NCBI RefSeq assembly: GCF_963921235.1 | Contig: NC_086108.1 | Location: forward strand, 44,146,001 to 44,210,000 | Length of the DNA: 64,000 nt | Reading direction: 5' to 3' | Source of the DNA: Mobula hypostoma | Lineage: Eukaryota | Shown: positions 33,549 through 36,529 of the stretch, piece by piece | Position numbering within the stretch: the stretch's first letter is position 1 | Layout: every line of letters starts with the position of its first letter | Notes under the pieces: generated by a model | What the model was told of the DNA's origin: nothing | Seen by the model: the letters and a program-made list of their open reading frames with translations, nothing else | Database searches by the model: none | Made by a program: the position numbers and the translations under genes

Positions 33549-35601
33549 GAAAGACTCGACCACTACTACATCCCATTGGCTATTCGAGGCATGATCACCA
33601 GCTACCTAGGGGGATTCAAACTCAGATTTACATCAGCCCATTTCACAACTAGTTGGCAGGACCTCCAGAAGGGGATTCTAACAGACTGCACCATCTCCCC
33701 CATTCTATTTATTATGGGAATGAACGTCCTATTATCAGCAGCAGAAGATGTAACCCGTGGCCCGACGCTGGAGTCAGGCATTGTTCAGCCGGCTCTATGA
33801 GCGTTCATGGACGACATCAATATAACAACTGTGTCACATGTCCAAGCAAGATGGGTATTGGAAAGCCTGGGTAATGTAGCCACTTGGGCGAGGATGTCCT
33901 TCAAGGCCAAGAAGTCCAGGTGCACGGTGATCAGAAAGGGCAAAGTTATTAGCAAGTTTAGCCTCCAAGTTCAGGGAGAGGTCATCCCTTCCATCGAAGA
34001 TAACCCGATAAAATGCTTGGGGAAGTGGTTTAATGTGTCACTGACAGATGGGGCCAATGTCACCAATGCTGTGAAGCAGACAGACGAATGGCTGAAGAAG
34101 ATCGACAAATCCAGACTTCTGGGTAAATTCAAGACCTGGCTGTACCAATACAGCATTCTGCCCAGGCTCCTCTGGCTCTTCACACTTTATGAGTTCCCCA
34201 TGACTGCCGTAGAGGGCATCGAGAGGAAAATCAACAAGCACCTGCGGAGATGCTTGGGAGTTCCCCCAAGCTTCTCTTCAGTGGGGCCTCTACATTTGTT
34301 CTGGGCAACTGCAGCTTCCCCTGTTGTGGAGGAATTCAAGGTGGCAAAATGCAGAGCCTTATTAAGCTTGAGAGATTCCAATGACATCTTGGTAAAGCAA
34401 GCAGGTGTTGTAACCAGATCTGGGCGCAAGTGGGCAGCCAACGCAGCTGTGGAGCAGGCAGTGTGTTCTCTGAAGCTGCGAGATATCATCGGCAACCCCT
34501 GCATCGGGCGGCAAGGCCTCAACTCAGTTCACTTCCAGTGGTGGGGAAACGCAAGCACAAGGAACAGGCGAGACATGGTACAGGCAGAAGTACGGATCCG
34601 TGAGGAAGTGAAGTGGATGTCAAAGGCAGTGGAAGAAGAGTCCCAGAGTGCCTGGACAAAATGGGATCTGCCTCAGCGCAAGATCTCATGGGCAGAGTTA
34701 TGGAGACTGAAGCCCTTCCGTATTTCCTTCCTCTTGCGATCCGTGTATGACACCCTTCCTTCACCACTACATCTGTACACACGGGGAATGAGAGAGGACC
34801 TGTACTGTAAGCTCTATGGTCAAAAGGGGACACAGGCTCATATACTGTCTGGGTGTAAAACAGCTCTAACTCAAGGACGGTATAGGTGGCGCCATGATAA
34901 GGTGCTTCTGGCTCTTGCTGACACACTAGAGTGGGAGAGATGCAAGAAGAGGACGGCTGGCACAGATTTGAGGAAGGCCATCACCTTCATCAAAGAGGGA
35001 GTCAGGCCTTTCGTAACCAAACAACCAAAGCCCAATCTGCTGCTAACGGCCAGGTCCTGGGAGATGAGGGTCGACATGGGAAGGAGGTTGCAGTTCCCAG
35101 ATGTGGTGCACACAACCCTACGCCCGGACATTGTACTGTGGTCAACCGAAGACAAGAAAATAATTCTGGTTGAGCTGACTGTGCCGTGGGAGGAGGGATG
35201 GGAAGAGGCCCACGAGAGAAAGGCCTTAAAGTACCAGCCCTTATTGCAGGAGTGTAAAGACAAGGGATAGCAGGCATGGTTTTTCCCTGTGGAGATCAGC
35301 TGCAGAGGTGTCCCAGCCAAATCAGCATGGCAGTCGTTGTCAGATCTGGGCCTGGACGAAAGGAGCAAAAAACAAGCAGCTTGTAGGATGGGGAAAGAGG
35401 CAGAATGAGCCTCTTGTTGGATTTGGAGTAGGCAAGAGGAGGGAAGCTGGAAGCCAGGAGCAGATGGGCAGTGATTTGACCACCACTGCCAGCCCACCAA
35501 CTGCAGAGTGTCGTGTTTAAGGGTCGAAACACTCTGTGAAGGTTGGGAACCACCTGATGACATCTGCTCCTGGCTGAAGGCTATGGTTACCTTATAAGGT
35601 A

Positions 35602-35637
35602 ACTGGAGAATGCACCCTAACAGGTGTATGTAACAAG
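35602..35637 (+). repeat. 36-bp terminal direct repeat, 3' copy
   Basis: Identical to 29594-29629; overlapped at its start by the perfect palindrome GTTACCTTATAAGGTAAC (35586-35603). Confidence 0.95.
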
Positions 35638-35798
35638 CAACACTGAATCTTAAATTGTCAACTATAAATCAGGATTTTAGATACTACATATTTGTAAGAC
35701 AATTAATTGTGAGTCAGCTATAAATCTTGCGCTGAATTACTTACAACAGAAAATTCAAAATTTCTAATATCAACCAAATGACCTGCACAAGTTTTACG

Positions 35799-36050
35799 TT
35801 TTTCACACAGAGAGTGGTGAATCTGTGGAATTCTCTGCCACAGGAAACAGTTGAGGCCAGTTCATTGGCTATATTTAAGAGGGAGATAGATATGGCCCTT
35901 GTGGCTAGGGGGATCAGGGGGTATGGAGGGAAGGGTGGTGCAGGGTTCTGAGTTGGATGATCAGCCATGATCATAATAAATGGCGGTGCAGGCTCGAAGG
36001 GCCGAATGGCCTACTCCTGCACCTATTTTCTATGTTTCTATGTTTCTATG
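35799..36050 (+). mobile_element. CR1 3'-terminal fragment (same family as 22416-23948)
   Basis: Near-identical to 23705-23950, including the (TTTCTATG)n tail. Confidence 0.9.
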
Positions 36051-36529
36051 TGACAGAGTATATCAATCAAGGCAGCCAGGGAAGCTGCTCCTACTGCCAC
36101 AGATATTCAATGCTACAATATTAACAAAATATTTTCATTTAGTGCCCACGATGTGTATAAACATCAGAAGGGATTTCACAGGATCATGATGCCAAACACA
36201 TTTTAAAAAAATTAAGGAAATATCGCTTCAGGTGACTTACAGTGTATTTTATAAGAGAAAAGAAATTTAGAGTGTTTTAGCAAGAAAACTACTTCTTTCA
36301 CAGAGATTGCAGCCACCAATTATAAATTGAAATGTGCAAGAATCCAAATTTGGGAGATATACAAGGATTTCGTGGATTTAGTTTTATTTTCTAGCAGCAA
36401 TTCTTGTATTATCATGAAACATTTCCATTAACTAAAATGATTCCACAGTGATAATCTGGTCTACCAGTAAGTAGTTTAAAACTTGCCTTTAGCAACCATG
36501 TTACAGGTTACAAACACTGGGCTTCCAGA

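Follow-up and report, generated by a model that had tools for sequence, protein, structure and literature searches.

The 64,000-nucleotide stretch of Mobula hypostoma DNA analyzed here (the window; NC_086108.1, positions 44,146,001 to 44,210,000 of the forward strand) contains a damaged copy of a Hero-like long interspersed nuclear element (LINE). Around the end of its open reading frame (ORF), positions 35455-35572 are probably a decayed copy of a stop-codon-spanning domain of Hero LINEs, which has a hammerhead core in a new pseudoknotted wiring and would be self-cleaving when intact. That the domain is a real, ancient, structured RNA is nearly certain. A first-pass annotation had drawn attention to the site by proposing a conserved hammerhead-type core in a non-classical strand order, located in the 3' untranslated region (UTR) of a LINE with a restriction-like endonuclease (RLE). 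Both proposals hold, the first through conservation and covariation in distant relatives.

The three core strands are where the annotation placed them, directly 3' of the ORF stop (TGA, 35472-35474): strand A is CAGAGTG-TC-GTGTTT (35504-35518), strand C is GGGTC-GAAA-CACTCTG (35521-35536) and strand B is AACCAC-CTGATGA-CATCT (35548-35565). We searched both strands of the window with a descriptor requiring the three strands in any of the six orders within 150 nt, with at least 6 pairs in stem III, 5/6 in stem I and 4/5 in stem II, GU pairs allowed. The single match was this site. The same descriptor found 43 sets in 378 Mb of first-order Markov sequence, or 0.015 per 128 kb, which amounts to about 0.015 per window, with the six orders about equally frequent. 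Raising stem III to at least 8 pairs, the length seen at the locus, left 6 sets, or 0.002 per 128 kb. A single locus proves nothing, because sets as good as this one should arise by chance tens to hundreds of times in a genome of 3.5 Gb. A chance likeness in an unremarkable 3' UTR would also suit nested minimum free energy (MFE) folding of 35480-35600, which is unremarkable (z = -0.15); that result is uninformative because the method is blind to pseudoknots. An Rfam scan of 35000-36200 gave no hammerhead match at E<=10, and a scan of the entire window gave no family at its gathering score. The sole Rfam matches, MIR480 and SMAD5-AS1_3, were weak and were treated as chance. What makes chance hardly credible as an explanation is that 48 of 54 divergent elements carry the same parts and show covariation in them. 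The locus is more than chance given this conservation and covariation.

The family is abundant in the Mobula hypostoma genome itself. A first look at the 3' UTR gave more than 1400 candidates, and the 40 that were scored were 93-100% identical. Copies this similar cannot show selection; therefore, distant relatives were examined. These were 79 metagenome loci encoding proteins at 32-75% identity. Among the 59 whose 3' flanks reached at least 80 nt, CTGANGA occurs within 300 nt of the stop in 47, and most of these 47 have GAAAC 22-30 nt upstream of the motif. The anatomy was derived from an anchored parse together with an alignment (A2) in which MAFFT aligned 38 sequences blind to structure. 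The paired fraction of cells on A2 is 92.4%, versus 36-44% with slid partners; compensatory changes occur at 32 of 36 pairs; and the score is 0.751 versus 0.08-0.13. Each of the six helices is supported.

We then have a test in which part of the structure was withheld. A covariance model was built from the nested helices only (P0, P1, Pb and III), leaving out stems I and II. Searching the metagenome loci with it gave 61 matches, all 61 on the ORF strand. Among the 54 loci that contain the ORF end and 140 nt or more beyond it, 48 were matched by the model over a domain of 118-138 nt, with the stop codon usually 14-23 nt inside it. In the model alignment (A3, 59 distinct rows), 93.7% of cells are paired versus 35-42% slid, and 35 of 38 pairs are compensatory; the support includes stems I and II, both absent from the model. 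Six Hero-like loci with an ORF end gave no domain match. Their best-segment identities to the window's protein (P0001, described below) are 39% (L070), 34% (L080), 38% (L083), 40% (L092), 34% (L097) and 52% (L099). Most of the six are among the remotest relatives or are incomplete; the explanation is either a domain confined to one subclade or truncation of these six copies.

Core nucleotides were counted in 52 distinct complete instances. All are canonical in 43, and the remaining 9 have one substitution each. C3, U4, A6 and A9 are invariant (52/52), and G5 and G8 are each present in 51. Position N7 varies freely (T 31, A 12, C 6, G 3). On the other side of the core, G12 is found in 49, A13 in 52, A14 in 51, A15.1 in 50 and U16.1 in 52, while at H17 the counts are 19 for C, 22 for U, 10 for A and 1 for G. 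The predicted cleavage site follows a GUH triplet, as first proposed. On A2, the A15.1-U16.1 pair is kept in 38/38 and the 10.1-11.1 pair is G-C in 33/38. The relatives have C3 to A9 with a free N7, G12 A13 A14 with the A15.1-U16.1 pair, an H17 that is almost never G, and three covarying helices. As a sequence pattern, this is the hammerhead signature, free position N7 included.

The same motifs invite another reading, in which CUGAUGA and the UGA/GA elements are box C/D-like kink-turn (K-turn) modules of a structure of the small ribonucleoprotein type and not a hammerhead. CUGAUGA resembles the C box consensus, and tandem GA elements and a K-turn-like loop are present. We consider this very unlikely. 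The equivalent of the C-box U is the free position, C3 and U4 are invariant, and GAAA, A15.1-U16.1 and the three helices abut the elements exactly as in a hammerhead. The Rfam scan of 35000-36200 gave no small nucleolar RNA family at E<=10.

The order of parts in the domain is P0a, P1 hairpin, II-5', Pb-5', K-turn-like loop, III-3', U16.1-H17, I-5', a linker of 2-6 nt, II-3', GAAA, III-5', K-turn-like loop, Pb-3', I-3', CUGANGA and P0b. The window coordinates and the support for each part are collected in Table 1. A9 runs into P0, P0a into P1, and P1 into G10.1, with few or no linker nucleotides; therefore, P0, P1, stem II and the core form a four-way junction. Stems I and III, as originally drawn, are genuine, judged by covariation across distant relatives. 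Stem II had been drawn as GGGTC with CATCT. That weak pairing exists in the window but is not conserved in the relatives: it is paired in 47% of cells, equal to the slid controls, and the 10.1-11.1 pair occurs in 1/38. The true partner of GGGTC is the upstream strand at 35491-35495, and CATCT instead opens the 12-bp P0 helix with 35455-35466. The check suggested at the outset, for an invariant core and covariation of stems I to III in relatives, therefore succeeded for the core and for stems I and III and failed for stem II as first drawn, but the redrawn stem II covaries. CCAAC/GTTGG (Pb), at first taken as a plain extension of stem III, is a real helix of a different kind: it ties stems I and II together at their far ends and meets stem III through an asymmetric loop.

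Table 1. Parts of the Hero-like copy in the window, with their support.
Feature	Positions	Strand	Description	Support
Hero-like ORF, C-terminal part	33801..35474	+	FMDD onward; frameshifted near 35230-35270; stop TGA 35472-35474; homologs in fishes, amphioxus and bivalves 42-72% identical	
P0 5' strand (P0a)	35455..35466	+	CAGGAGCAGATG; in last codons; perfect 12-bp complement of 35561-35572	8/8 aligned pairs compensatory; 91-93% of cells paired
P1 hairpin	35467..35490	+	Stems 35467-35473 / 35484-35490; loop 35474-35483; contains stop codon	7/7 pairs compensatory (A3)
Stem II 5' strand (10.1-10.5)	35491..35495	+	Pairs with 35521-35525; window A at 35491	G10.1 in about half of family copies and most relatives; 92% of cells paired; 4/5 pairs compensatory; 10.1-11.1 pair G-C in 45/54 cells
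Pb 5' strand (CCAAC)	35497..35501	+	Pairs with 35542-35546; bridges distal ends of stems I and II	5/6 pairs compensatory; 88-94% of cells paired
K-turn-like loop, non-bulged strand (UG + GA)	35502..35505	+	Window C at 35504, family G	G in 31/52, A in 44/52
Stem III 3' strand (GAGTG) and U16.1	35506..35511	+		U16.1 in 52/52; stem III 97% of cells paired, 5/6 pairs compensatory
H17 (C)	35512..35512	+	Predicted scissile bond 35512/35513, assigned by analogy with hammerheads	
Stem I 5' strand	35513..35518	+	Window GTGTTT; 27/30 family copies GTGGTT	First four pairs all compensatory (4/4); 96% of cells paired
Stem II 3' strand (GGGTC, 11.5-11.1)	35521..35525	+		Covariation alignments
G12 A13 A14 A15.1 (GAAA)	35526..35529	+		Core column counts
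Stem III 5' strand (CACTC)	35530..35534	+		Covariation alignments
K-turn-like loop, bulged strand	35535..35541	+	3-nt bulge TGT, GA, AG	Columns U 37, G 42, A 45 of 52
Pb 3' strand (GTTGG)	35542..35546	+		Covariation alignments
Stem I 3' strand (AACCAC)	35548..35553	+		Covariation alignments
C3-A9 (CTGATGA)	35554..35560	+		Core column counts
P0 3' strand (P0b)	35561..35572	+	CATCTGCTCCTG; complement of 35455-35466; first five bases formerly assigned to stem II	
Remaining 3' UTR	35573..35642	+	Hairpin GGTTACC..GGTAAC, then CACC..GGTG-TAT, then GTAACAAG tail	

The loop between stem III and Pb has the consensus YN-GA between Pb-5' and III-3' and NNU-GA-NN between III-5' and Pb-3'. In 28 of the 52 instances, one strand has a 3-nt bulge and then GA, and the other has GA beside stem III. 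In the standard K-turn, as presented in the available part of PMC5061560, G.A and A.G pairs come after a 3-nt bulge, and the included angle is 50 degrees. The Hero loop thus has the standard pattern in these 28, a likeness of sequence only. One subgroup (L041, L056, L057, L071 and L078) differs in using an opposite-strand loop: the 3'-strand bulge and GA are missing, and the 5' strand has an insertion, UAUUAAA, between Pb and stem III. This subgroup is apparently a different solution to the same bend. The P1 loop has its own regularity. A Watson-Crick palindrome of at least 6 nt occurs in 36 of 48 distinct instances, against a mean of 7.1 and a maximum of 14 in 1000 shuffles, and at least seven different palindromes are used (UGAUCA, UGGCCA, UGUACA, UCAUGA, GACGUC, AGUACU and GGAUCC). 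The family majority in Mobula has UGGCCA; in the window copy, G has become A at 35479, where other copies and species have G. Self-complementarity selected in this way suggests loop-loop kissing of two RNAs, that is, dimerization.

The annotation knew of no description of the A-C-B strand order. This order has in fact been described and validated in the non-circularly permuted hammerheads of type SGC (the HRIMA-1 motif and variants) by Eckert, Friedrich, Weinberg & Weinberg (Nucleic Acids Research 2023, PMC10085705; comparisons here are with the available part of that paper). The window and all aligned relatives share with type SGC the order of cleavage site, GAAA and CUGAnGA. They also share the few-nucleotide linker from the stem I 5' strand to the stem II 3' strand, an extra helix (Pb in Hero) tying the far sides of stems I and II, multiple core pseudoknots, and the puzzle of how the bridging helix connects to stem III. 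In a few type-SGC cases, that helix is joined directly to stem III, which the authors left unexplained. The two differ in several ways. Stem II's 5' strand comes straight after CUGAnGA in type SGC, whereas in Hero it lies upstream of the site block; the Hero A9 instead enters the closing helix P0, in a four-way junction with P1; both strands of the Hero bridging helix continue into stem III through the K-turn-like loop; Hero has the P1 hairpin over the stop codon, with its covarying palindromic loops; and type SGC comes from metatranscriptomes, whereas the Hero motif is in an animal LINE. The type-SGC sequences, all but one, are from IMG/M metatranscriptomes, where they occur alongside hairpin-ribozyme RNAs thought to be circular. 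In the available text of Eckert et al., supplement included, retrotransposons are mentioned in reference lists only. Formally, circularly permuting type SGC so that block C is opened between A9 and G10.1 gives the predicted Hero motif. Eckert et al. assumed that the three blocks cannot be interrupted; the Hero motif, being opened inside block C, therefore lacks the uninterrupted-block feature that defines type SGC.

With the classical type I, II and III hammerheads, including those of Penelope-like elements (PLEs) and retrozymes, the Hero domain shares the core nucleotides, the GUH site, three covarying stems and an association with retroelements. The strand connectivity differs, and no Rfam hammerhead model matches the Hero domain. 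Compared with PLE hammerheads, the host here is an RLE LINE, and the domain is at the ORF end and not in the pseudo-long terminal repeat (pLTR) or at the ORF start. As far as the available account goes, the hammerhead of the Penelope-like element PAc overlaps an ORF boundary. The known ribozymes of R2-superfamily LINEs are like that of hepatitis delta virus (HDV) and lie at the 5' end. These and the HDV-like ribozymes of other retrotransposons that lack long terminal repeats (non-LTR retrotransposons) resemble the Hero domain in being double-pseudoknotted, RLE-LINE-borne RNAs that cleave themselves, as is predicted for Hero. They have another fold and core, and at the 5' end they release the element from a co-transcript, whereas the Hero domain is at the 3' end of the ORF. 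Literature searches, which did not cover subscription-only papers, turned up no paper describing a hammerhead in an RLE LINE, Hero included. In the available part of a November 2026 paper, the retroelement ribozymes listed in the introduction do not include one.

How would such a domain work? Stems I, II and III would surround a canonical core, with Pb tying the distal ends of I and II as in type SGC. The chain would enter and leave the core between A9 and G10.1 by way of the four-way junction of P0, P1, stem II and core. RNA of an intact copy would then cut itself after H17. More tentatively, translation might gate folding, since P0 and P1 have to be opened by ribosomes, and a protein that binds K-turns or is encoded by the element might act as a further gate. 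Through its palindrome, the P1 loop may kiss a second RNA, such that activity or the choice of template by the reverse transcriptase (RT) depends on a dimer. Gating by translation, protein or dimerization is plausible. Lunse et al. in 2017 reportedly found that PLE hammerheads act as dimers.

The copy in the window is itself probably inactive, judging by its sequence. As first noted, it is decayed. It has private substitutions at four structural positions (35479, 35491, 35504 and 35516), all of which are G in contigs from four sequencing runs of other organisms. The run data are assembled contigs, used for variant letters and contig ends. In an alignment of 30 copies from its own genome, stem I is perfect (GTGGTT/AACCAC) in 27, CTGATGA is present in 29, GAAA in 26 and TC at the cleavage site in 29, and 12 have a fully canonical core with G10.1-C11.1. 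C11.1 and G12 (35525-35526) form a CpG, and a second one (35490-35491) ends in G10.1. Deamination products are seen in many genomic copies, as TCA or TTG among 25-mers and as A at 35491 in about half of the 30, and G12 has become A in most of the depth of run X5. Since the core CpGs carry deamination products, decay by methylation quickly inactivates the core.

Cleavage in intact copies, between 35512 and 35513 and by the hammerhead mechanism, is what we infer by analogy. The genome might record it as copies beginning at G1.1 (35513). Exact 25-mers across the site are intact 315 times in the Mobula genome. Two pattern matches have a changed upstream triplet at the site: one (L111) is a 3-nt deletion, and the other (L110, 1446-1600) is a real junction, in which RT-coding sequence (…SQLIH) is joined directly to 35513. 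This single case would be expected of a cDNA that switched template after running to the 5' end of a cleaved RNA. At two control positions in the same genome there were 0 and 1 matches, the one resembling a 1-nt insertion, and no true junction. In run X5, two contigs have unrelated sequence up to 35513, and in run X1 one contig begins there. The L110 junction and these contigs are weak hints of ends at G1.1.

Several points weigh against self-cleavage by this core. There is no significant pile-up of junctions at the site in the Mobula genome (1 exact junction versus 315 intact 25-mers, which are small numbers). In run X5, most of the depth (147.5/188.2) has A at G12, a CpG position. A cut about 125 nt upstream of the 3' end would leave the ORF on one fragment and the tail priming reverse transcription on another, with no obvious benefit. 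The chain break at A9/G10.1 is without precedent. Pb is joined to stem III on both strands, the steric puzzle that Eckert et al. (PMC10085705) note for direct connections in the available text. For PAc, the portion of the account at hand reports that hammerhead cleavage is dispensable for insertion in vitro and that no RNA-seq ends fall at the site.

The absence of a pile-up, the severed template and the PAc result would all be expected of a non-catalytic scaffold of hammerhead ancestry or shape, conserved for binding and marking the RNA for RT, packaging or dimerization. The domain is also located where R2-type proteins recognize the template, its overlap with the stop codon suits loading in cis, and the P1 palindromes and K-turn-like loop resemble interaction modules. 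We regard such a scaffold, the main rival reading, as possible but rather unlikely. All the nucleotides needed for hammerhead chemistry are kept, while the catalytically irrelevant N7 varies and H17 avoids only G, a pattern unexpected for a pure binding site. Moreover, type-SGC RNAs, whose wiring is similar, cleave at the predicted site and require all four helices, according to the part of PMC10085705 available. A self-cleaving hammerhead core therefore remains our preferred reading of the domain.

A more specific version of that self-cleaving domain takes in the P1 loop. Rough steric estimates suggest that, if stems II and III are coaxial in a monomer, Pb cannot close onto stem III as well. 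The new topology, with the core opened at A9/G10.1 and closed at the other end by the K-turn, may be assembled or switched on only when P1 loops of two element RNAs kiss after ribosomes have cleared the stop; a ribozyme gated by protein and dimer in this way would couple translation, template choice and RNA processing. As a complete scheme this is doubtful. Head-to-tail copies are relevant here. In the Mobula genome, L122, L123 and L124 each have two Hero domains on one strand, 3.1-5.7 kb apart. Four metagenome loci (L031, L033, L044 and L048) have a second, upstream domain copy on the same strand, about 3.65-3.73 kb away. The upstream copy in L033 is whole and preceded by Hero ORF sequence, and those in the other three are cut by the contig end. 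The members of the L033 pair differ, with 68% and 82% identity to P0004. Head-to-tail pairs fit either insertion beside the tail of another copy or template jumping. If the dimer-gated scheme is true, they would be explained as template jumps within an RNA dimer. The idea that the ribozyme of an upstream tandem copy sets the 5' end is unsupported, as none of L033 and L122-L124 begins at G1.1. The upstream copies at these four loci have Hero ORF sequence before them and the rest of their own 3' UTR after them, with no sign of RNAs starting at the cut.

The host element was named by its motifs and by the host range of its homologs. The translation of 33801-35270 (P0001) is the C-terminal part of a Hero-like ORF with the RT motif FMDD, a CCHC-like motif and a PD..ExK restriction-like endonuclease. 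Its FMDD, H..C and RPD..ELTVPWE motifs are also conserved in the homolog alignment, in which the C-terminus is aligned. The order of RT, CCHC motif and PD-(D/E)xK endonuclease in a single ORF is that of the Hero clade; the RVT_1 matches lie upstream. The 120 listed homologs have 41-71% identity, and their sources, where named, are fishes, amphioxus, bivalves and a crinoid. This range resembles that of the HERO references listed in PMC7650587. The sequence evidence fits a Hero-type element, an RLE LINE of the R2 superfamily. A second, nearly complete RT domain of another LINE type (P0002, 31780-33129, plus strand; RVT_1, E = 2.9e-34) lies within the Hero copy, apparently as a nested insertion that splits the Hero RT between about 31289 and 33801. 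At the other end, the element terminates at about 35637-35642, since the copies diverge past GTAACAAG(T/C)A. Loose contig ends in other runs fall behind 35636-35644. Most relatives (the 3' ends of L034-L108) have a short hairpin, GCAGU..ACUG, and then UAU 3' of the domain. The window family has the additional hairpin GGTTACC..GGTAAC and one or two terminal GTAACAA-like units.

If the self-cleaving reading is true, this would be the first hammerhead tied to the RLE LINEs of the R2 superfamily. It would also place non-circularly permuted hammerheads in animal nuclear genomes, with a family of more than 1000 copies in one genome. The hammerhead core would be reachable by yet another chain path, one that breaks the working rule that the CUGAnGA block and stem II are inseparable. 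Descriptor searches built on that rule therefore miss the Hero motif. The K-turn-like loop may address the steric puzzle left open by the discoverers of type SGC. For the retrotransposons themselves, the covarying palindromic loop would offer a handle on RNA dimerization in non-LTR retrotransposition, and the overlap with the stop codon would be a concrete route to cis-preference.

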